64,000 nucleotides of DNA from Mobula hypostoma (GCF_963921235.1 NC_086097.1:71860001-71924000); one strand, 5' to 3'; shown: positions 12,675-61,485, numbered from the stretch's first letter. The notes: generated by a model not told the origin, from the letters alone. Numbers and translations are program-made.

Positions 12675-14042
12675 TAGAAACATAGAAACATAGAAAATAG
12701 GTGCAGGAGTAGGCCATTCGGCCCTTCGAGCCTGCGCCGCCATTTATTATGATCATGGCTGATCATCCAACTCAGAACCCAGCCTTCCCTCCATACCCCC
12801 GACCCCTGTAGCCACAAGGGCCATATCTAACTCCCTCTTAAACATAGCCAATGAACTGGCCTCAACAGTTTGCTGTGGCAGAGAATTCCACAGATTCACC
12901 ACTCTCTGTGTGAAGAAGTTTTTCCTAATCTCGGTCCTAAAAGGCTTCCCCTCTATCCTCAAACTGTGACCCCTCGTTCTGGACCTCCCCAACATCGGGA
13001 ACAATCTTCCCGCATCTAGCCTGTCCAATCCCTTTAGGATCTTATACGTTTCAATCAGATCCCCCCTCAATCTTCTAAATTCCAACGATAACAAGCCCAG
13101 TTCATCCAGTCTTTCTTCATATGAAAGACCTGCCATCCCAGGAATCAATCTGGTGAACCTTCTTTGTACTCCCTCTATGGCAAAGATGTCTTTCCTCAGA
13201 TTAGGAGACCAAAACTGCACACAATACTCCAGGTGTGGTCTCACCAAGGCCTTGTACAACTGCAGTAGTACCTCCCTGCTCCTGTACTCGAATCCTCTTG
13301 CTATAAATGCCAGCATACCGTTCGCCTTTTTCACCGCCTGCTGTACCTGCATGCCCACTTTCAATGACTGGTGTATAATGACACCCAGGTCTCGTTGCAC
13401 CTCCCCTTTTCCTAATCGGCCACCATTCAGATAATAATCTGTTTTCCTATTTTTGCCACCAAAGTGGATAACTTCACATTTATCCACATTAAATTGCATC
13501 TGCCATGAGTTTGCCCACTCACCCAACCTATCCAAGTCACCTTGCATCCTCTTAGCATCCTCCTCACTGCTAACACTGCCACCCAGCTTCGTGTCATCCG
13601 CAAACTTGGAGATGCTGCATTTAATTCCCTCATCCAAGTCATTAATATATATTGTAAACAACTGGGGTCCCAGCACTGAGCCTTGCGGTACCCCACTAGT
13701 CACCGCCTGCCATTCTGAAAAGGTCCCGTTTATTCCCACTCTTTGCTTCCTGTCTGCTAACCAATTCTCCACCCACACCAATACCTTACCTCCAATACTG
13801 TGTGCTTTAAGTTTGCACACTAACCTCCTGTGTGGGACCTTGTCAAAAGCCTTTTGAAAATCCAAATATACCACATCCACTGGTTCTCCCCTATCCACTC
13901 TACTAGTTACATCCTCAAAAAATTCTATGAGATTCGTCAGACATGATTTTCCTTTCACAAATCCATGCTGACTTTGTCCGATCATTTCACCGCTTTCCAA
14001 ATGTGCTGTTATCACATCCTTGATAACTGACTCCAGCAGTTT
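12675..14042 (-). mobile_element. Young 5'-truncated CR1 (RT to 3' tail), open reading frame retained
   Basis: ORF 12753..14189 has YLDFQKAFDKV, GVPQGSVLGP and FADD, and is nearly identical to 59025-60394. (CATAGAAA)n tail at 12675-12697. Confidence 0.96.
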
Positions 14043-30664: not shown

Positions 30665-31870
30665 AGAGTCATTGAGACATCAAGTTCTATAGCACAGAAT
30701 CAGGCATTTTGGCTCATCTAGTCCACACCGACCTGTTTTTTCTATTCCTCCCATCTACTGCATTCAGACCATAGCCTTTCATACCACTTTTATCCATGTA
30801 CCTATCGAAGTTTCTCCTAAATGTTTCAATTGAACCTACATCCATCACTTCCACTGGTAGCACATTCTGCACTCACACCACCCCCTGAGTGGAGAAGATC
30901 CCCTCAGGTTCCCCTTAAATATTTCACTTCTCAGCCAAAAACTACGGCCTGTAGTTCTAGTCTCACCTAGTCTCAGTGGGGAAAGCCTGTATGTACTTAC
31001 CCTATCTATATCCCTCATAATTTTGTATATCTCCATGAGACCTCCCACATTCTCCAATGGTCCAGGGAATAAAATCCTAACTTATTTAAACGTTTCCCAA
31101 AACTCAGGCCCTCAAGTCCTGGCAACATCCAGCATACCTTTCCTGTAGGTAGGTGACCAGGAATGCACACAATATTCCAAATTCAGCCACACCAAATCTT
31201 GTCCAACTTCAACATAACATCCCATCTCCAGTACTCAGTGTTCTGATTTATGAAGGCCAATATGTTACAAGCTGTCTTTATGACCCTATACACCTGTGAC
31301 ACTACTTTTAAGGAATTATGGATCTGTATTCCCAGATCCCTTTGTGCTGCCCCACATTCAGTGCTCTATTGTTCACTGTAAGTAAATCCTATCCTGATTT
31401 GTCTTGCCAAAGTAACACCTCATATTTTTCTGCATCAAATTCCATTTGCAATTTTTCAGCTCGTTTTCACAGCTGGTCCAGGTCCCGCTGCAAGCTTTGA
31501 CAGCTTATCTTGCTGTCTACTATGCCCTCATCTGGGTGTTATCCACAAGTCTGCTGATCCAGTATACCACATAATCATCTATATCATTCACATCCTGTAG
31601 GTGCTAAACAACAATGGACCCAGCACCCATCGTTGTGGCACACCATGAAGTCACAGGTCTCCAATCAGGGAGACAATCATCTCCTACCACTCTCCATCTT
31701 CTCCCACTAAGCCGATGTTGACTCCAATTCATGACTTCATCCTGCTTGCCAAGTGTCTCAACCTTCTGGACCAGTTTCATACGTGGGACTTTGTCAAAGG
31801 CCTTGCTAAAATCCATGTAGACAACATCCACTGCCTTTTCTTCACCAACCTTCCTTGTAACCTCCTCCTG
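30665..31870 (-). mobile_element. CR1 RT and 3' end nested antisense inside the older CR1
   Basis: ORF 31604..31873 has AVDVVYMDFSKAFDKVP. ORF 30845..31057 has EIYKIMRDIDRV. Confidence 0.85.
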
Positions 31871-32726
31871 CACGTTCTTGTTATGGTGAAAGGCAAGACT
31901 GGCATGTTAAGGCGATCCTGACTGATATCCTGATCAGCATGGATACCTGTGCATGGAACCAAAGGAAATGGGTAAGATTTTTAACGAGTATTTCTCCTCA
32001 GAATTTACTGTGCTGTAAACAATGGAGGTTAATAAGATTGAGGAAATGGGTGGCGTTGTCTTGGATTACGTACAAATTGACAGGGAGTTGGTATTGGAGG
32101 CCTTGAAGTACATTAAGGTGCTCAAATGCCCCAAGTCTGACCATGGATTCCTAGACCTTGTGGGAAGCTAGAGAAGAAATTACAAAGGCTTTTGTTTAGA
32201 GATTTTTGCTTTATCTTTGGATAAGCAAAGATTGGAGAGTGACTAAGGTGTACTATTGTTTAAAAAGGGTAGCAAAAACAGACAAGAAAACTACAAGACA
32301 ATGAATTGACGGAGTGATGGGCAAATTGCTTTAGGGGATTCTGAGGGTCAGAATCCATCGCATTTAAAGAGATAAGGTCTGATCTGGGACATGTAGCAGA
32401 GCTTGTGTGTGGAAATTGTGTCTGTTAGATCTCCTTGTGTTCATTGAGGAGATAATCAAGAGGGTAAATGATGGTAGGGCAATGGCTACTGTCTATATGG
32501 ACTTTAGCAAAGCCTTTGATAAATTACTTCATGGTTATCTGGTCTGGAATGTTAGGTCACATGTGATGAAAGGGGAGGTAGAGGATTAGGTTTATCATTG
32601 GCTCAGAAGTAGGAAGCAGAGAGTATTAGTCCAGGGTTGTTTCTCAGACTGGAAGTTTGTGTCTGGTGGTGTGCCACTGAGGCCTTTGTTGTTTGTAATT
32701 TGTAGATTTCGATATAGATGTCCAAG

Positions 32727-32867
32727 CAGGAGAAAATCTGCAGATACTAGAAGTCTGACTGGTCCTGATAAAGAGCCTCGGCCCGAAAAGTTAACTGTTA
32801 ACTCTTTTCCATAGATGCTTCCAGGCCTGATGAGTTCGTCCAGAATTTTGTGTGTGTTGCTTGGAGG
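32727..32867 (+). mobile_element. Short Penelope-derived insertion with decayed hammerhead motif
   Basis: ggtcctgataaagagcctcggcccgaaaagttaactg. Flanking direct repeat tagatgt(c/a)caag at 32715-32726 and 32868-32879. Confidence 0.75.
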
Positions 32868-35568
32868 TAGATGTACAAGGTATGGTAAGTAAGTCTGTGG
32901 ATGACATTAAAACAGATGGTGTTGTTCATAGTGTAGAGGAATATGAAAAATTAATCAACAAGATACATGGGCTGATAACTAGCATTTGGCTTTCAATCCA
33001 GAGAAATGTGAGGTATTGTGTCTTGGGAGGTCAAACCAGGGATTTATACATTGAATGGCAAGCCCTTGGAAAATCCTATAGAACAGATACCTAGTTGTGC
33101 ATAGTTTGCTGAAAGTGGTGTCACATGTAGAAAGGATGGTGAAGAAAATGTATGGCCTTCATCAATCAGAGTATTATGCATAGGAACTAGGAAGTTATAA
33201 TGCAGTTATATAAAATGCTGGAGAGACCATGTGTACTGTTTTGGTCACCCTGTTATAGGAAAGATTTTATTAAACTTGAAAGTCTGCCCCCTACTAAATC
33301 ATTAACAGCTATCTAGATAGGTACATAGATAGGAAGGGTTTAGAAGGCTATGAGCTAAATATGAACAGATGGGACTAGGTCACTGGGCAACCAAGTAGTC
33401 ATGGTTAGGCTGAGGAGCCTGTTTACGTGTTGTATGGCTTTATGAGACTTCAACTCTATGACTCCACACTTGTTTAAGAGAAAAGCTGGAATATACAAAG
33501 CAAACCAGATGTAATACTGATAGGTTGTGGCCTCTCATCTCCATAAGTTTTCTGAGTATTTTCACTGAAGACATGGGAAATCCATCTTAACTAGAGCAAT
33601 TAACAGCAAAGCGATGCACAGTTTCGCTTTTGTCAAACGAATCATGCTGTAATTTGGACTTCTTGCATGTCCGTTGCTATCAGGTGTAAGTTGCTGAGTA
33701 TCCCTGAGATCCAACCATGGCGATGTCATCAAATTGGCAATTGAAGATTCACGCGAAGAACAAACAGGGAGGAGGAAAGGTGTCATCTTTAACCAATACT
33801 TTATACAGTTTTTGCAAGAAAAATAAACAGTAAAAAATATAAAATAACGAAAGGTCAAATACTATTAGCAAGTTGATTGAAACTATGAAAGCTTATCTGT
33901 AGAATCTCTTGTAGCTAAGGGTTATAATCACTGACATACAACAAAGCACATTATTTTAAAGTGTTTCTTGGAGGTTAATTTGGAACTGTCTTAAATTCTT
34001 ATGAAATCACTGATCTCCCATGATTGTCTGGAATAGTCTGGTATATTGTGCAGCATAGAAGATGGAAATAAACACAGCAGCCCCTGAATTTCTACATTTA
34101 TTTGGCTGTACAGGAATCCCAGAAGTGCAACCAGTTTCACAGTGTATTAGTGACAAATGTTAACAGCCTTGCCTTCATTGCTTCTAAAAATAACAAACCT
34201 TGTTAATTTTATCCACAGTAATGTGCAATACCTGTGATGGATTGATAGCAGGAACATTTCCACTGATTAATAATTCTGGAATAGATCGCGACAAACTTTG
34301 GATCTTACTGCATAAATTAGAATCTCTTGGGGGTAAAGTGGTGGTAACATGGTACCTCATTTCTGGGTTCTGCTGCATTAATACATGGTTAGCGAACTGC
34401 AGGCATTAATGGTGCCTGTGCTTGAGTGGGAGGTTGCCCATTTAGGTGGCACATCGGTGGAGATCCGATACAGCCAGTTTGCTGCTCTGCCACCAATCCA
34501 ATGCCACCCACAACTCATCCATTTGGACCATGCATTCAGCCTCTTTACCAAGTGTCCTTTCAACTCTTCTGTGGATTTTGTTGCTCCCTTTGTGAAGCTC
34601 TTGAGAAATGAAGCTGCACTGAAGATGTTTGATGCATACTTCATTGTTGCAACATTGCTGGAGCATTTCGGAAAGGCGGGAAGAGGAATCAAGTACAGGT
34701 CAAGTGTGCAGGTGGACTAAATCCTTTCGCTGAGAGGCAGTTTGTGTGTTTAATGGACTGAAAATAAATTTTTAGAAGCAGCAGAGGAGATGTGAAAAGC
34801 TGTGCACTGCATAAAGGTCATCTCAGTCAGGCAGATGATAAAAAAAATCTTTAAAATGATTTAAAATGTTCCAAAAATAGATGGACAAGCTGTGGAATAT
34901 GACTTGAAGAATCCAAGTGGAAAGCTAGTAAACTTCCAAAATTCAGTGTGGAGTTCAGCCCAGGGAGAGTAAGAAGCCAGTGATAGAAATGCCTGATGGT
35001 GAATGGGGAACAAGTTAGAGCCACTAGCCACTCAGAAGTTGGCATCAAAGAGGTGTTCTGAGATACAGTATTGTGACAATAAACAAAATGCACTGGATAA
35101 TGACATGGAGACTTAGATGATTAGACCCTTAAAACAAGCAATATGATGTTGTTGTCTGAATTACAAGAAGCTCACCAATTTGGTGCTGTTATTTTCCAGT
35201 AGCTGCCACATACAGTCTGCATCAACTCTGCAGATGACTAACCATGCATCAGCAGGTACATCATGGCTACAACATCTGCTGCCGGCATACCATAACTGAA
35301 CTGAAAAATGGCATTAGTTGGGAGAGAGTGTACTTTGAGGTTCCCTGCATCAAAGGCCTGGGTGGAGGAGGTGGAAAGCAAGAAATATCAGAAGATTAAA
35401 GGAACTTGCAGATGCTTGTTCATGAGTAGTGGACCAGATAGTCGTGAATTTCACGATTCAGGTCCAAAGTCCTTGGATGAAGAAAACCAATTATCTCACA
35501 CAATTAAGTGCCAATGTTGCCAACTACCAACATTGGACTCAAAACTGCCCAATTCAAAACAGCACCAT

Positions 35569-42024: not shown

Positions 42025-44200
42025 CAAGGCATGCAATAAGGGCAATGACACAATTGTAATGGAACCCTTAGGAGACAGTGATCATAATATGATTGAATTC
42101 ATCCTTCAATTTGAGGGGGAAGCACAAGTCACGTATTTCAGTATCACAATGGAATAAAGGGAATTACAGAGGCATGAGAGAGGGGCTTTCCCAGGTGGAT
42201 TGGAGAAGGATACTGATGGGGATGACGGCAGAGCAGGGATGGGTGAGATTTCTGGGAATAGTTCACAAGACACAGGATAGATACAGTATGTCCCCAGAAG
42301 AAATAGTTCTCAAATGGCAGGGGTAGGCAATCATGGCAAAAGTGAGTGGGAAGTTGGATGATTGGAAAGTTTTTAAAATCCAATAAAAGGCAACTAAAAA
42401 AGCAATAAGAAGGGAAAAGATAAAATATGAGATCAAACTAGCCCATAATATAAAGCAGGATACTAAAAGATTTTTCATTTATATTAAGAGTAAAAGGGAG
42501 GTGGGAGTTGATATTGTACCACTAGAAAATGATGCTGGTGAGATAGTAATGGGGGACAAAGAAATGGCAGATGAACTTAATGGATACTTTGGATCAGTCT
42601 TCACTGTGGAAGACACGAGCATTGTGCCAGAGGTCCATGAATGTAAAGGAGCAGGAGTGAATGTCATTGCTGTTACAAAGGAAAAAGTGCTAGGCAAACT
42701 CAAAGGTCTTAAAGTGGATAAGTCACCTGGACCAGATGGACAACATCCCATTATCCTGAGAGAGGTCACTGAAGAGATAACAGATGCATTGGTCATGATC
42801 TGGAAGATTGCAAATGTCACTCTACTCTTTAAAAAAGGGAGGAAGGCAGAAGAAAGGAAATTGTAGGCCAGTTAGCCTAAACTAAGTGGCTGGGAAAGTG
42901 TTGGAGTCTATTATTAAAGATGAGGTTTTGGGGTACTTGGAGACTAATGATAAAGTAAGATAAAGTCAGCATGGTTTCTGTAAAGGGAAATCTTGCCTGA
43001 CAAATCTTTTAGAGTTCTTCAAGGAAGTAACAAGCAGTGTGGACAAAGGAGAGGCAGTGGATGTCATTTACTTGAATTTTCAGAAGGCATTTGATAAGGT
43101 GCTGCACATGAGTCTGCTTAACAAGATAAAATTCTATGGCATTACAGGAAAGATGCTGGCATGGATAGTGGAATGGCTGTCAAGCAGGAGGCAGCGAGTG
43201 GGAATAAAGGGGTCCTTTTCTGGTTGGCTGCCAGTGACTAGTGGTGTTCCTCAGGGAACAGTATTGGGACTGTTACTTTTCACATTGTTTGTCAATGATT
43301 TGGATAATCGACTTGATGGCATTGTGAGAAAGTTTGTGAATGATACAAAGATAGGTGGAGGGGTAGGTAGTGCTGAGGAAGCAATGCGATTGCAGCAGGC
43401 CATAGACAAACTGGAAGAATTTGTAAAAAAAAATGGCAAATGGAATAGTGTTGTGAAATTTACGATAATGCATTTTGGTAAAAGGAACAATAGTGTGGAC
43501 TATTATCTAAGTGGGGAGAAGGTTCAAAGATCAAAGGTGCAGAAGGACTTAGGAGTCCTCGTGCAAGATTCCCAGAATGTTAATTTACAGGTTGAGTCTG
43601 TGGTAAAGAAGGCAAGTGCAATGTTGGCATTCATTTCGAGGGGAATAGAATATAAAAGCAAGGAGATAATGATGAGACTTTATAAGACACTAGTCAGGCT
43701 GCACTTGGGATATTGGCAAGAATCCAGAGGAGGTTCACACAGGAATGAAGGAGTTAACATATGAGGAGCGTTCAGCAGCTTTGGGCCTGTACTCATGCGA
43801 TTTAGAAGAATGTGAGGGGATCTCATTGCAACCTACCAAATGTTGAAAGGACTAGGTAAGCAGGATGTGGAGAGAATGTTTCCTATAGTGGAGGTATCCA
43901 GAACTAGAGGGCACAGCCTCAGAATTGAGGGGCAACCTTTAAGAACAGAGGTAAGAAGGATTGTTTTTTAGCCAGAGAGTAGTAAATCTGTGTAATACTC
44001 TGCCACAGACTGCAGTAGAGGCCAAGTCCATGGGTATACTTAAGGCGGAAGTTGATCATTTCCTGATCGGTCAGGGCATCAAAGGAGATGCCAAGAAGGC
44101 AGATGTATGGGGTTAAGTGGGATCCGGGATCAGCCATGATGGAATGGCAAAGCAGACTCGATGGGCTGACTGGCCTAATTCTGCTCCTATGCCTTATGGT
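42025..44200 (+). mobile_element. CR1 LINE (partial EN, RT, 3' tail) inserted in the BEL protease region
   Basis: ORFs 42501..42866 (DKSPGPDG) and 43039..43764 (AFDKV, GVPQG). Tail cctatgccttatggtctt. Confidence 0.92.
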
Positions 44201-46025: not shown

Positions 46026-48445
46026 TCTGCTGGCTGTATTGTGCATCTATACACAGCTATGCAGCGAGCTAAACAGCTTATCAAAACTCACCAAAGATGG
46101 AAGCTTTCTTCAGTGTTGTTACGAAGTAATGTCCTTGTGAAGCTGCAGAAATTTAAGTAAAATACATATTAAATTCAACACAGAATGACCGCAGGCTTAA
46201 TTAGGAAGGGGAAAAAAGATTATGAGAGAAAACTGGCAGGGAACATAAAAACTGACTGTAAAAGCTCTTATAGATATGTGAAAAGAAAAAGATTGGTTAA
46301 GACAAATGTAGGTCCCCTATAGACAGAAACAGGTGAATTGATTATGGGGAGCAAGGACATGGCAGACCAATTGAATAATTACTTTGGTTCTGTCTTCACT
46401 AAGGAGGACATAAATAGTCTTCCGGAAATAGTAGGGGACAGAGGGTCCAGTGAGATGGAGGAACTGAGGGAAATACATGTTAGTAGGGAAGTGGTGTTAG
46501 GTAAATTGAAGGGATTAAAGGCAGATAAATCCCCAGGGCCAGATGGTCTGCATCCCAGAGTGCTTAAGGAAGTAGCCCAAGAAATAGTGGATGCATTAGT
46601 GATAATTTTTCAAAACTCTTTAGATTCTGAACTAGTTACTGAGGATTGGAGGGTGGCTAATGTAACCCCACTTTTTAAAAAAGGAGGGAGAGAGAAACCA
46701 GGGAATTATAGACTGGTTAGCCTAACATCGGTGGTGGGGAAACTGCTAGAGTCAGTTATCAAAGGTGTGATACAGCACATTTGGAAAGCGGTGAAATCAT
46801 CGGACAAAGTCAGCATGGATTTGTGAAAGGAAAATCATGTCTGACGAATCTCATAGAATTTTTTGAGGATGTAACTAGTAGAGTGGATGGGGAGAACCAG
46901 TGGATGTGGTATATTTGGATTTTCAAAAGGTTTTTGACAAGGTCCCACACAAGAGATTAGTGTGCAAACTTAAAGCACACGGTATTGGGGGTAAGGTATT
47001 GATGTGGATAGAGAATTGGTTGGCAGACAGGAAGCAAAGAGTGGGAATAAACGGGACCTTTTCAGAATGGCAGGCAGTGACTAGTGGGGTACCGCAAGGC
47101 TCAGTGCTGGGACCCCAGTTGTTTACAATATATATTAATGACTTGGATGAGGGAATTAAATGCAGCATCTCCAAGTTTGCGGATGACACGAAGCTGGGCA
47201 GCAGTGTTAGCTGTGAGGAGGATCCTAAGAGGATGCAGGGTGAATTGGATAGGTTAAGTGAGTGGGCAAATTCATGGCAGATGCAATTTAATGTGGATAA
47301 ATGTGAAGTTATCCACTTTGGTGGCAAAAACAGGGAAACAGATTATTATCTGAATGGTGGCCGATTAGGAAAAGGGGAGGTGCAATGAGACCTGGGTGTC
47401 ATTATACACCAGTCATTGAAAGTGGGCATGCAGGTACAGCAGGCGGTGAAAAAGGCGAATGGCATGCTGGCATTCATAGCAAGAGGATTCGAGTACAGGA
47501 AGGTGGAGGTACTACCGCAGTTGTACAAGGCCTTGGTGAGACCACACCTGGAGTATTGTGTGCAGTTTTGGTCCCCTAATCTGAGGAAAGACATCCTTGC
47601 CATAGAGGGAGTACAAAGAAGGTTCACCAGATTGATTCCTGGGATGGCAGGACTTTCATATGATGAAAGACTGGATGAACTAGGCTTATACTTGTTGGAA
47701 TTTAGAAGATTGAGGGGGGTTCTGATTGAAACGTATAAAATCCTAAAGGGATTGGACAGGCTAGATGCAGGAAGATTGTTCCCGATGTTGGGGAAGTCCA
47801 GAACGAGGGGTCGCAGTTTGAGGATAAAGGGGAAGTCTTTTAGGACTGAGATTAAGAAAAACTTCTTCACACAGAGAGTGGTGAATCTGTGGATTTCTCT
47901 GCCACAGGAAACAGTTGAGGCCAGTTCATTGGCTATATTTAAGAGGGAGTTAGATATGGCCCTTGTGGCTAAAGGGATCGGGGGTATGGAGGGAAGGCTG
48001 GTGCAGGGTTCTGAGTTGGATGATCAGCCATGATCATACTGAATGGCGGTGCAGGCTCGAAGGGCCGAATGGTCTACTCCTGCACCTATTTTCTATGTTT
48101 CTATGTTTCTATGCCTGAATATCCTAATACTTGAGATTATTTTCACAAATATTGCTAACCAAAGTAGTACACATATGCAATACTCCATAACTATGCAATG
48201 ATAATTTAAATATAATACTTCCTTCAAAATATATCTACTAAGTATTTGCCAATAGCTCCAAAAACCTAAGACTCACTGATATTGCTGTTTCAAGGGCAAA
48301 TAAGGAGTGACTGGAAATTTGTGCCTTTCCACTCTGCACTTTAAATTAAATCCAAACTAACCTTCACAAGAAGTAGTATAAACAACAGTTTACCAACAGG
48401 AAGTGATGTTCATACAAATGAACTGCACCTCAATTGGCCAGAAGA
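46026..48445 (-). repeat. BEL/Pao 5' LTR, split by a CR1 insertion (46194-48113)
   Basis: Shares acagctatgcag(t/c)gagctaaacagctt...agatggaagctttcttcag, cctgaatatc.taatact and caggaagtgat.ttcatacaaa with 35569-36099. Confidence 0.85.
46194..48113 (+). mobile_element. 5'-truncated CR1 of the young subfamily, with a few frameshifts and stops
   Basis: Highly similar to 58479-60394. (TTTCTATG)n tail. Confidence 0.95.
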
Positions 48446-56452: not shown

Positions 56453-56919
56453 TGATGATAGGACAGTATCAAGGAATCCCCTGAAATTTGACCTTAAGAC
56501 CATAAGATATTGGAGTAGAATTTAGGATTTTGGTCCATCAAGTCAACTATGGCTGATTGTTCTTTTTCAATCCCATTCTCATCCTTCCCTACATAACCCT
56601 TACCCCCTTACCAGAATTTGCTGGAACTCCATAAATCTCAGGAAAGCTAATGGGCAAGAACCCTTAGCAAAATGACTTTGGCTTCTTCTTTGCTTGGTAT
56701 CTGGGCAATAAACTTTGCGGAATTGAATAGTGGATGTCATCACTTGGGCATTTTTTTCCAGTTTTGTTCTGTTTTCTGCTTATATTTTTTCAATTCTTTA
56801 ATCTTTCTTTCTGTTTTTTTTTCCCTGATGATCTTGCTGTTTGCTGAATGGAATGTTTCTATTTTGATCCAACCGTGGAAATGGCAGAATCCGGTCAGGA
56901 TTTAAAGTGAGTACACATA

Positions 56920-57291
56920 AAGTGGGAGGGTGAAGAGCCAGAGGTCCTGGTACATATAGGTACCAATGACATAGGTAGGAAAAGGGATGAGGTCCTGAAA
57001 GAAGAATATAGGGAGCTAGGAAGGGAGTTGAGAAAAAGGACCGCAAAGGTAGTAATCTCGGGATTACTGCCTGTGCCACGCGACAGTGAGAGTAGGAATG
57101 CGATGAGGTGGAGGATAAATGCGTGGCTGAGGGATTGGAGCAGGGGGCAGGGATTCAAGTTTTTGGATCATTGGGACCTCTTTTGGCGTAGGTGTGACCT
57201 GTACAAAAAGGACGGGTTACACTTAAATCCTAGGGGGACCAATATCCTGGCAGGGAGATTAGCGGGGGCTACTGAGGTGACTTTAAACTAG
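56920..57291 (+). CDS. CR1 ORF1 C-terminal SGNH/GDSL esterase-like domain (5'-truncated)
   Basis: Reads KWEGEEPEVLVHIGTND...VVISGLLP...DGLHLN..G, matching the SGNH blocks GxND and DxxH. Stop TAG at 57289-57291. Confidence 0.9.
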   Translation, partial: KWEGEEPEVLVHIGTNDIGRKRDEVLKEEYRELGRELRKRTAKVVISGLLPVPRDSESRNAMRWRINAWLRDWSRGQGFKFLDHWDLFWRRCDLYKKDGLHLNPRGTNILAGRLAGATEVTLN

Positions 57292-57296
57292 AATGG

Positions 57297-60296
57297 TTGG
57301 GGGGTGGGAATCAAATTAAAGCGGCTAGGTGTGAGGAGGTTAGTTCACAACAGAGGGATGGGAACCAGTGCAGAGAGACAGAGGAGTGTAAAGTGAGCGT
57401 AGAAGCAAAAAGTACAAAGGGGAAAAGTAAAAGTGGCAGGCCGACAAATCCAGGGCAAGCATTAAAAAGGGCTAAGAGAGTTGTAAAAGAGCGCCTGAAG
57501 GCTTTATGTGTCAATGCAAGGAGCATTCGTAATAAGGTGGATGAATTGAAAGTGCAGATTGTTATTAATGATTATGATATAGTTGGGATCACAGAGACAT
57601 GGCTCCAGGGTGACCAGGGATGGGAGCTCAACGTTCAGGGATATTCAATATTCAGGAGGGATAGACACGAAGGAAGGGGAGGTGGGGTGGCGTTGCTGGT
57701 TAAAAAAGAGATTAACGCAATAGAAAGGAAGGACATAAGCCGGGAAGATGTGGAATCGATATGGGTAGAGCTGCGTAACACTAAGGGGCAGAAGACGCTG
57801 CTGGGAGTTGTGTACAGGCCACCTAACAGTAGTAGTGAGGTCGGAGATGGTATTAAACAGGAAATTAGAAATGTGTGCAATAAAGGAACAGCAGTTATAA
57901 TGGGTGACTTCAATCTACATGTAGACTGGGTGAACCAAATTGGTAAAGGTGCTGAGGAAGAGGATTTCTTGGAATGTATGCGGGATGGTTTTTTGAACCA
58001 ACATGTCGAGGAACCGACTAGAGAGCAGGCTATTCTGGACTGGGTTTTGAGCAATGAGGAAGGGTTAATTAGCGATCTTGTCGTGAGAGGCCCCTTGGGT
58101 AAGAGTGACCATAATATGGTGGAATTCTTCATTAACATGGAGAGTGACGTAGTTAATTCAGAAACAAAGGTTCTGAACTTAAAGAGGGGTAACTTTGAAG
58201 GTATGAGACATGAATTAGCTAAGATAGACTGGCAAATGACACTTCAAGGATTGACGGTGGATATGCAATGGCAGGCATTTAAAGGTTGCATGGATGAACT
58301 ACAACAATTGTTCATCCCAGTTTGGCAAAAGAATAAATCAAGGAAGGTAGTGCACCCGTGGCTGACAAGAGAAATTAGGGATAGTATCAATTCCAAAGAA
58401 GTAGCATACAAATTAGCCAGAGAAAGTGGCTCACCTGAGGACTGGGAGAAATTCAGAGTTCAGCAGAGGAGGACAAAGGGCTTAATTAGGAAGGGGAAAA
58501 AAGATTATGAGAGAAAACTGGCAGAGAACATAAAAACGGACTGTAAAAGCTTTTATAGATATGTAAAAAGGAAAAGACTGATAAAGACAAATGTAGGTCC
58601 CCTGCAAACAGAAACAGGTGAATTGATTATGGGGAGCAAGGACATGGCAGACCAATTGAATAATTACTTTGGTTCTGTCTTCACTAAGGAGGACATAAAT
58701 AATCTTCCAGAAATAGTAAGGGACAGAGGGTCCAGTGAGATGGAGGAACTGAGCGAAATACATGTTAGTAGGGAAGTGGTGTTAGGTAAATTGAAGGGAT
58801 TGAAGGCAGATAAATCCCCAGGGCCAGATGGTCTGCATCCCAGAGTGCTTAAGGAAGTGGCCCAAGAAATAGTGGATGCATTAGTGATAATTTTTCAAAA
58901 CTCGTTAGATTCTGGACTAGTTCCTGAGGATTGGAGGGTGGCTAATGTAACCCCACTTTTTAAAAAAGGAGGGAGAGAGAAACCGGGGAATTATAGGCCG
59001 GTTAGCCTAACGTCGGTGGTGGGGAAACTGCTGGAGTCAGTTATCAAGGATGTGATAACAGCACATTTGGAAAGCGGTGAAATGATCGGACAAAGTCAGC
59101 ATGGATTTGTGAAAGGAAAATCATGTCTGACGAATCTCATAGAATTTTTTGAGGATGTAACTAGTAGAGTGGATAGGGGAGAACCAGTGGATGTGGTATA
59201 TTTGGATTTTCAAAAGGCTTTTGACAAGGTCCCACACAGGAGATTAGTGTGCAAACTTAAAGCACACGGTATTGGGGGTAAGGTATTGGTGTGGGTGGAG
59301 AATTGGTTAGCAGACAGGAAGCAAAGAGTGGGAATAAACGGGACCTTTTCAGAATGGCAGGCGGTGACTAGTGGGGTACCGCAAGGCTCAGTGCTGGGAC
59401 CCCAGTTGTTTACAATATATATTAATGACTTGGATGAGGGAATTAAATGCAGCATCTCCAAGTTTGCGGATGACACGAAGCTGGGTGGCAGTGTTAGCAG
59501 TGAGGAGGATGCTAAGAGGATGCAGGGTGACTTGGATAGGTTGGGTGAGTGGGCAAACTCATGGCAGATGCAATTTAATGTGGATAAATGTGAAGTTATC
59601 CACTTTGGTGGCAAAAATAGGAAAACAGATTATTATCTGAATGGTGGCCGATTAGGAAAAGGGGAGGTGCAACGAGACCTGGGTGTCATTATACACCAGT
59701 CATTGAAAGTGGGCATGCAGGTACAGCAGGCGGTGAAAAAGGCGAACGGTATGCTGGCATTTATAGCGAGAGGATTCGAGTACAGGAGCAGGGAGGTACT
59801 ACTGCAGTTGTACAAGGCCTTGGTGAGACCACACCTGGAGTATTGTGTGCAGTTTTGGTCCCCTAATCTGAGGAAAGACATCCTTGCCATAGAGGGAGTA
59901 CAAAGAAGGTTCACCAGATTGATTCCTGGGATGGCAGGTCTTTCATATGAAGAAAGACTGGATGAACTGGGCTTGTACTCGTTGGAATTTAGAAGATTGA
60001 GGGGGGATCTGATTGAAACGTATAAGATCCTAAAGGGATTGGACAGGCTAGATGCGGGAAGATTGTTCCCGATGTTGGGGAGGTCTAGAACGAGGGGTCA
60101 CAGTTTGAGGATAGAGGGGAAGCCTTTTAGGACCGAGGTTAGGAAAAACTTCTTCACACAGAGAGTGGTGAATCTGTGGAATTCTCTGCCACAGCAAACT
60201 GTTGAGGCCAGTTCATTAGCTATGTTTAAAAGGAAGTTAGATATGGCCCTTGTGGCTACAGGGGTCACGGGGTATGGAGGGAAGGCTGGGTTCTGA
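57297..60296 (+). CDS. CR1 ORF2: APE endonuclease and reverse transcriptase, uninterrupted (the track's start is TTG; the frame opens at 57276)
   Basis: Motifs NARS, ITETW, YRPP, GDFN, SDH, KSPGPDG, NYRPVSLT, AFDKV, GVPQGSVLGP and FADD. Confidence 0.96.
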   Translation: MGGGNQIKAARCEEVSSQQRDGNQCRETEECKVSVEAKSTKGKSKSGRPTNPGQALKRAKRVVKERLKALCVNARSIRNKVDELKVQIVINDYDIVGITETWLQGDQGWELNVQGYSIFRRDRHEGRGGGVALLVKKEINAIERKDISREDVESIWVELRNTKGQKTLLGVVYRPPNSSSEVGDGIKQEIRNVCNKGTAVIMGDFNLHVDWVNQIGKGAEEEDFLECMRDGFLNQHVEEPTREQAILDWVLSNEEGLISDLVVRGPLGKSDHNMVEFFINMESDVVNSETKVLNLKRGNFEGMRHELAKIDWQMTLQGLTVDMQWQAFKGCMDELQQLFIPVWQKNKSRKVVHPWLTREIRDSINSKEVAYKLARESGSPEDWEKFRVQQRRTKGLIRKGKKDYERKLAENIKTDCKSFYRYVKRKRLIKTNVGPLQTETGELIMGSKDMADQLNNYFGSVFTKEDINNLPEIVRDRGSSEMEELSEIHVSREVVLGKLKGLKADKSPGPDGLHPRVLKEVAQEIVDALVIIFQNSLDSGLVPEDWRVANVTPLFKKGGREKPGNYRPVSLTSVVGKLLESVIKDVITAHLESGEMIGQSQHGFVKGKSCLTNLIEFFEDVTSRVDRGEPVDVVYLDFQKAFDKVPHRRLVCKLKAHGIGGKVLVWVENWLADRKQRVGINGTFSEWQAVTSGVPQGSVLGPQLFTIYINDLDEGIKCSISKFADDTKLGGSVSSEEDAKRMQGDLDRLGEWANSWQMQFNVDKCEVIHFGGKNRKTDYYLNGGRLGKGEVQRDLGVIIHQSLKVGMQVQQAVKKANGMLAFIARGFEYRSREVLLQLYKALVRPHLEYCVQFWSPNLRKDILAIEGVQRRFTRLIPGMAGLSYEERLDELGLYSLEFRRLRGDLIETYKILKGLDRLDAGRLFPMLGRSRTRGHSLRIEGKPFRTEVRKNFFTQRVVNLWNSLPQQTVEASSLAMFKRKLDMALVATGVTGYGGKAGF

Positions 60297-61485
60297 GTTG
60301 GATGATCAGCCATGATCATAATAAATGGCGGTGCAGGCTCGAAGGGCCGAATGGCCTACTCCTGCACCTATTTTCTATGTTTCTATGTTTCTATAAGTGG
60401 AGAGGGTGGAAGAAAAGCAGTAAAATTAATCTAAACAATTCCGATGGATACAATGGAAGTTGTGAAAGAAGATTAGTCAAGAGTACATTCAGTCTGCAAT
60501 ACAATATCATGTATAAATGAAAAAGATGATGCCATGCAAAAACTCTTCTTCATCATTATACCTGACTTCAGATAAAAATTGGAACAGATTAAGAAAGCAG
60601 TCTGTTTGGCAACAAAATGCTGGCTTACAACTGGGATAATGTTCAACTGGTTCCCATAGGCATCAATGTACAGTGACAAAGGAGAGTTGCTCTTGCAATA
60701 TTAACCAGCTGATTCAGAGGAAATGGTGGAAAAATACAATATTAAAAGCAAACTGTCTCCAGAGACAGTATTTTAGAACACTGTGTGGATGACTCTTCTG
60801 TCAATATACAATGATGTATTACCATTTTAAATCAGATAATGTTGCTTTAAATGTTGAAGAAGTTTAATGTTGACATTAAACATTTATTGCATGGAACTGC
60901 TGTTGGCATAACATAGGAGTTAACACGGATAATCCAATCCATATCCCAAATGTATTTATTCAATCTATCCCCGATATCTACAGACAGGTTGCAGATTATG
61001 TCTGCTGTACGATAAAGGCAGAGCCATAAACTAAAACTGCAACATTGATATGATGATTTAATACAAATAATATTTTACTGTCCAATATTCAATCATAGAT
61101 TAATGCATTACAACAGTATCTGTAAACTCAGATATTTAATAAATGTTTTGTTTTAGCTGCTTCAAGGCATATCTGGAGTGACAGACAAATGGGACAATGA
61201 TGGAAGCCAATTCTGCAGAATATTTTACAATTTGATTGCACACATCTTGGTTTTTTTTTCCATTCTCTTTCTGAAGGGCAAATTCTCTTTCCACACATTT
61301 AATTAATCAGTTCTCATTTATTATGGAGCTTACAGAGTAAATGGTAGTCAAGGATTGCACTGTTGAACGTTTCACAGCTTTTTCCAATCCTATGTTCACT
61401 CAATATTCAATCATGAGCCAACAGAGAGAGATGTGAAGAGTAACATGGCAGATTTTTCTCTCTCTAGAAACTGCTGAGTTACAAG

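Follow-up and report, generated by a model that had tools for sequence, protein, structure and literature searches.

The stretch analysed here (the window) comprises 64,000 nucleotides (nt) of Mobula hypostoma (GCF_963921235.1 NC_086097.1:71860001-71924000), and all coordinates refer to its full length. It contains, on the + strand, a copy of a long interspersed nuclear element (LINE) whose first open reading frame (ORF1) encodes an SGNH/GDSL esterase and whose second (ORF2) encodes an APE endonuclease and a reverse transcriptase (RT). The junction of both frames is considered here as a candidate site of programmed -1 ribosomal frameshifting. The element would belong to the CR1 clade rather than to L2 on account of its type of ORF1 and of the description of chondrichthyan L2 elements as lacking ORF1 (PMC13343379). 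The features of the copy are the following:

56920-57291, + strand: 3' part of ORF1 with the SGNH esterase domain (Pfam Lipase_GDSL_2, PF13472, E 8e-15), truncated at the 5' end.
57273-57275, + strand: TGA, upstream limit of the -1 frame (from the sequence).
57276-60296, + strand: ORF2 frame of 1006 codons (linker, APE endonuclease, RT), first ATG at 57900.
57282-57288, + strand: slippery heptamer T_TTA_AAC in X_XXY_YYZ phase (from sequence and conservation).
57289-57291, + strand: TAG stop of ORF1, abutting the heptamer (TAA or TAG in other families).
57297-57299, + strand: in-frame near-cognate TTG, the best start candidate for reinitiation, not conserved.
57299-57309, + strand: G-run (conserved G5, +11 to +15), then TGGGA; a candidate for a 3' stimulator without structure.
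57351-57365, + strand: recombination join (57350/57351) and a second, vestigial G motif of the ORF2 donor family.
From about 57495, + strand: APE endonuclease, within the ORF2 frame.
About 58971-59624, + strand: RT, within the ORF2 frame.
60372-60394, + strand: 3' tail of about three copies of the short tandem repeat TTTCTATG, end of the element (from the sequence).

ORF1 ends in ACT TTA AAC TAG at 57280-57291. A preliminary description of this junction had placed the heptamer in phase directly before the ORF1 stop, and ORF2 in the -1 frame, opening after the TGA at 57273 with an overlap of about 16 nt that holds the heptamer; both placements are correct, the overlap being of 16 nt. As the -1 frame is bounded by this TGA, a shift is confined to the final 16 nt of ORF1, and in 62 of 78 junction copies the upstream stop of the -1 frame is likewise at most 10 codons away. 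The first in-frame ATG of ORF2 is codon 209, more than 130 codons beyond the start of the endonuclease, in agreement with the earlier position about 200 codons in and within that domain, and the ATG at 57293 does lie in another (the third) frame that terminates after 8 codons. The in-frame TTG at 57297 is an addition to that description. The G-rich tract starts as described, at 57295 (+7), with the correction that only the G5 at +11 to +15 is conserved and not the whole tract. The ORF2 domains identified with Pfam were PF03372, PF14529 and PF00078 (APE endonuclease, then RT).

Conservation of the heptamer was assessed with an unbiased anchor, the esterase motif DGLHL located 78 nt upstream of the ORF1 stop. 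This pattern gave 19,502 genomic matches (5 with the reversed control), with TAA or TAG in register in 14,186. One hundred of these loci were sampled and, together with the window, made a set of 101, of which 70 with an in-register stop were retained and 31 dropped (indels, lost stops and non-CR1 hits). TTTAAAC was present in 59 of the 70. Genome counts with a shorter anchor, not strictly comparable with the 14,186 in-register matches, were 13,021 for TTTAAAC followed by TAR, 382 for a changed first T and 114 for TTCAAAC. The variants listed occur on many different family backgrounds, the pattern expected from decay after insertion. A TTCAAAC subfamily, as a sign that the heptamer is dispensable, was discarded as the 114 copies are dispersed over families, bar a small group of four similar copies on G000:C58 (1.5-3.6 Mb), which may stem from a single mutated copy duplicated locally. 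Ten more loci, chosen via a distant protein, had TTTAAAC before the stop in 7 cases and a mutated or shifted motif in 3. The window alone contains 7 heptamer matches at one mismatch with 5.9 expected by chance, so the case depends on conservation, which excludes a chance motif.

The signature of this conservation is found at the level of single nucleotides. In 29 of 30 cluster representatives the codon preceding Leu has T as its third base, although the amino acid encoded may be G, A, D, S, C, V or another; only L070, an out-of-register copy left out of later counts, departs from this. The Leu codon is TTA in all 27 representatives with Leu, and other conserved Leu positions vary in codon. A tree of 78 copies (69 ray and 9 metagenome), computed on the esterase sequence upstream, gave 0 changes for the first T of the heptamer, 6 and 11 for the two preceding bases of that codon, and 1-9 changes on internal branches (mean 4.1) for the third positions of codons 7-23. 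With the codon usage of the element (T3 0.24; TTA 0.16-0.21 of Leu; AAC 0.36 of Asn), protein constraint alone predicts the codon choice of the heptamer about 1-2% of the time. The constraint on the heptamer acts on bases, beyond amino-acid need. Ray subfamilies and amniote-type copies alike keep the heptamer, its phase and the stop. Of the 78 junction copies, 77 end ORF1 with TAA or TAG and one with TGA, though TGA equally yields Leu in the -1 frame.

Downstream of the stop, the bases at +4 to +10 are free to vary and those at +11 to +15 are G with zero internal-branch changes on the same tree. Two third positions in this G5 are synonymous and one first position is common to D, E, G, A and V; at least four of its five bases are G in 76/78 copies and all five in 58/78.

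These data bear on the explanation that the motif is kept for a C-terminal Leu-Asn or as an RNA signal (packaging, stability or processing), ORF2 being expressed via internal initiation or splicing. The final Leu may pack in the last esterase helix, neighbouring third positions are likewise 67-83% conserved among representatives, and G runs are common given a G-rich sense strand (GC skew about 0.3). Opposed to this are the codon choice, reached so rarely under protein constraint, the -1 frame, kept open from the heptamer onward in linkers of 16 different lengths, and the TAA variants and G-rich upstream sequence, unlike a splice acceptor. In contigs from four runs, one of them possibly the source of the window, no splice joint was identified over 57225-57330 and no variant above 3% at 57279-57330, and the joints seen in another comparison were not recurrent GT..AG; all this is weak evidence. 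This explanation is considered very unlikely.

The phase between heptamer and endonuclease is kept over linkers of different lengths: the endonuclease is in frame with the heptamer in 54 of the 72 copies having an endonuclease hit, and the stop-free linkers, found in 42 copies, have 16 lengths from 99 to 312 nt. No ATG was present in 25 of these linkers, and in 8 the ATG came later than codon 6. In a tally of codons 4-6 over 29 clusters, blurred by ties and decayed singletons, 7 clusters had ATG, another 7 NTG, 10 a weak near-cognate and 5 none of these. Conservation is seen for none of the start codons, and the heptamer is retained in every start-codon class. The ray DGLHLG subfamily (L153-L170) presents TTTAAAC followed by TAATG, that is, the heptamer plus a SART1-like overlap of stop and start; UAAUG was also identified in L117, and several amniote-type copies have TAG-NN-ATG (L101, L102, L104 and L107). 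In 30 close copies of the window family the first Met is codon 207 in all 30, and the ORF2 frame is open to the end of the locus in 29. An AUG ahead of the endonuclease, named in the preliminary description as evidence against frameshifting, is lacking in the window family (30 of 30 close copies) and occurs in frame, at the stop or shortly past it, in one ray subfamily and several amniote-type copies.

It is here that stop-coupled termination-reinitiation has to be weighed, by which ribosomes would restart at an AUG, UUG or other codon within a few bases of the stop and release a free ORF2 protein, as in SART1, L1 and influenza B BM2, the conserved bases aiding termination or restart. The stop-start arrangements above agree with it, as do the TTG at 57297 in the window family and the upstream UGGGA motifs at -96 and -117 (38/78 copies each). 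Against it, these upstream UGGGA motifs are Trp codons, a further common one lies downstream at +16, and in the usual window of a termination upstream ribosome-binding site (TURBS, -90 to -40) UGGGA is present in only 8/78 copies and in one of the AUG-bearing copies tested. The start codon itself is unconserved, with the 5 clusters lacking any near-cognate and the 10 with weak ones only, and a single step suffices to turn the ATT or TTG codons found at these positions into Met. Reinitiation leaves unexplained a canonical heptamer fixed in the correct phase, even in AUG-bearing families, and the young recombinant described below has lost the AUG. Reinitiation is thus regarded as unlikely, although less so than the preceding explanation. 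The use of both routes, with ancestral frameshifting and an AUG added for reinitiation in some lineages or the reverse, is consistent with the persistence of heptamer and G5 in AUG-bearing lineages; the position of the AUG varies by lineage (codon 4 or 5) and nothing separates a dual model from the single-route ones. It is the least probable of the three.

The window family is the youngest of the abundant CR1 families and arose by recombination between two subfamilies, with the join 60 nt past the ORF1 stop. All 40 matches scored, out of 1519 candidates, were 100% identical over 301 nt, which indicates a very young family. The window copy is 94% identical to L050 over 56920-57350 and 90% to L169, of the AUG-bearing subfamily that donated ORF2, over 57351-58700. 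The join excluded the heptamer and AUG of the donor and preserved the -1 phase to the upstream heptamer, and the G motif of the donor persists, hence the duplicated G motif. The -1 phase is likewise intact in a variant that has lost 27 nt (240 to 213 nt). As the family is young and lacks the donor AUG, this AUG was unnecessary for its recent success, though the TTG at 57297 remains.

The window copy itself is 5'-truncated near 56920, identity to other copies stopping near 56912-56920, so it cannot use its own slippery signal; the complete ORF1 (311 amino acids) was identified in a longer copy, L006:707-1639. The 3' flank at 60394-60415 resembles the element at the truncation point, 56918-56940 (TAA(A)GTGG...AGGGTG), which suggests microhomology at the 5' join, and no clear target-site duplication was seen around the element. 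Further LINE ORF2 fragments in the window are located at 12777-14042, 46173-47997, 42044-43968, 30759-33286 and other positions, two of them with 91-98% protein identity to the ORF2 of the junction copy.

The classical -1 signal requires an RNA structure 5-9 nt downstream of the heptamer (PMC3542737). Over the 90 nt that follow the heptamer, folding was not better than in shuffled sequences (mean z -0.39, n=29), and a consensus fold of 17 rows, including L163 on the wrong strand, gave 0 consensus pairs, pseudoknots being outside the reach of the folding methods. No conserved hairpin was identified at 5-9 nt, and the purine-rich region offers no shared stem. A G-quadruplex, predicted in 6/29, is not general, and the best long-range partner of the G-run inside the element (-19.4 kcal/mol) is inside the range of 8 shuffles. 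Compared, with no control, with 18S ribosomal RNA, the G motif does not have helix 26 as its best pairing site; the best sites are scattered, 15 of 30 falling on a C-rich stretch near nt 675-724. Since the canonical signal includes a structure and none is shared here, the junction is not classed as a canonical two-part signal. The G5 is instead a conserved unstructured motif at fixed spacing, as in the site of PRRSV, the virus of the porcine reproductive and respiratory syndrome.

The distribution of the motif is broad. Named ORF1 matches were identified in rays, sharks, coelacanth, frogs, turtles, a snake, lizards and a hummingbird, the closest being a ray protein (98%). Of 120 ORF1 proteins listed, 84 have the motif, 74 of these ending in Leu-Asn, and 36 are without it. 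Metagenome loci, whose amniote-type label is taken from their best matches and most of which come from one assembly, reach the junction in 11 of 41 cases; TTTAAAC is present in all 11, with the endonuclease directly visible in the -1 frame in six. Distant ORF1 representatives with a tail of 22-40 amino acids (n=71) end in LN in 37, GN in 7 (6 QGN) and KN in 1. The QGN ending was observed in P0115, P0181, P0187, P0203, P0208, P0218 and P0228. Such a tail could be encoded by CAG GGA AAC, that is G_GGA_AAC, another strong heptamer, to which these relatives may have switched. Searches of plasmids and of viral and genome contigs yielded no DNA of amphibian, turtle or QGN-type relatives, so for the QGN group this idea is a tentative lead.

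CR1 ORF1 sequence was also identified under host gene or bacterial names in public annotations (P0022, P0026, P0064, P0121 and P0122), probably chimeric models or contamination. A natural family with ORF1 and ORF2 fused in frame was sought among 5 longer proteins and rejected: only P0121 links esterase and endonuclease, and this single gene model is most simply explained by an indel.

From the observed layout, conservation and phase, the lack of an AUG in the window family and the absence of a shared 3' fold, the junction of esterase-type vertebrate CR1 LINEs is likely a programmed -1 frameshift site yielding an ORF1-endonuclease-RT fusion, and the fusion proposed in the preliminary description is supported to that extent. 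With a conserved heptamer and stop, ORF2 in the -1 frame and, in the window family, no nearby start codon, the RT would be made via a one-base backward slip. Most ribosomes would terminate at UAG and release the ORF1 protein (311 amino acids) as the main product. In a minority the transfer RNAs (tRNA) for Leu and Asn would slip in tandem from UUA AAC to UUU AAA, with CUA as the next codon, giving a product of about 1,313 amino acids with the predicted junction T-L-N-L-E-W-L-G. Less securely, the pause behind the shift might be due to the adjacent stop and/or to contact of a protein or the ribosome with the single-stranded G-run, and not to a pseudoknot.

Several observations weigh against a frameshift. 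An in-frame AUG is present at codons 4-6 in 9 of the 42 intact linkers, the UAAUG subfamily included, and an NTG codon in 7 more of the 29 clusters, among them that of the window. Reinitiation is a known mechanism in LINEs: it is ORF1-dependent in the elements tested, L1 and SART1 (PMC2881922), and was also reported in PMC3894237. No conserved stimulatory structure exists among the sequences folded, 26 of the 71 distant ORF1 tails end neither in LN, GN nor KN, and the copies are related, so the counts exceed the number of independent events. The signal itself is real, deeply conserved and of the recoding type. The wider proposal, by which the dominant LINE of most vertebrates would have made a gag-pol-like fusion since before the split of sharks and birds, with the G5 as a structure-free stimulator and perhaps G_GGA_AAC in the QGN relatives, is more tentative and somewhat less probable than its opposite.

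The translation of LINE ORF2 is an open question, settled so far for few elements and by reinitiation; it was attributed to unusual initiation in PMC5009743, and the word CR1 does not occur in the portion of that paper covered. If true, frameshifting in CR1 would fix the ratio of ORF1 to ORF2 proteins and explain the delivery of RT in cis by covalent fusion to a membrane-binding esterase. It would also correct the annotation of ORF2, where the first ATG leaves half of the endonuclease out, help in setting up a working retrotransposition assay for CR1 and provide a natural frameshift site without RNA structure. Frameshifting to -1 is itself known; in the CR1 clade it would be new, as would its pairing with a non-canonical 3' element. 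No proposal of it for CR1 was found in the searchable literature; the original papers on CR1, SART1 and L1 translation were beyond reach and may note the overlap. Related work on the topic comprises PMC11835228, PMC5006619 and PMC4255032.

Compared with known systems, the closest relatives are the esterase-type CR1 elements of chicken, turtle, coelacanth and chondrichthyans, which share the SGNH esterase ORF1, the APE-RT ORF2, the 5' truncation and the tandem-repeat tail (PMC13343379 and PMC3905857); the word frameshift is absent from the covered portions of both papers, and no junction signal is described there. The Dictyostelium elements TRE5-A and TRE3-A, APE-type retrotransposons that lack long terminal repeats (non-LTR), are likewise said in a review to need a -1 frameshift for ORF2 (PMC5911963), although they belong to another clade and have another ORF1. 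SART1, L1, calicivirus and BM2 share the stop adjoining the start of ORF2, as UAAUG in one ray subfamily, whereas CR1 has neither a conserved AUG nor a TURBS-positioned UGGGA and has a conserved slippery heptamer.

Retroviral gag-pol and coronavirus 1a/1b share with CR1 the in-phase X_XXY_YYZ and a downstream -1 ORF without a start (PMC3542737 and PMC5009743), and U_UUA_AAC ranks with the heptamers on which ribosomes of mammals are most prone to shift (PMC5009743). In contrast to these viruses, CR1 has no conserved 3' hairpin or pseudoknot, presenting a G5 at fixed distance instead, and no protease to cleave the fusion. PRRSV nsp2, where nsp1beta and PCBP act with a C-rich motif, shares a short and spacing-sensitive downstream motif (PMC7618843 and PMC5009743); the motif in CR1 is G-rich and has no known binding protein, and the likeness in layout is by analogy alone.

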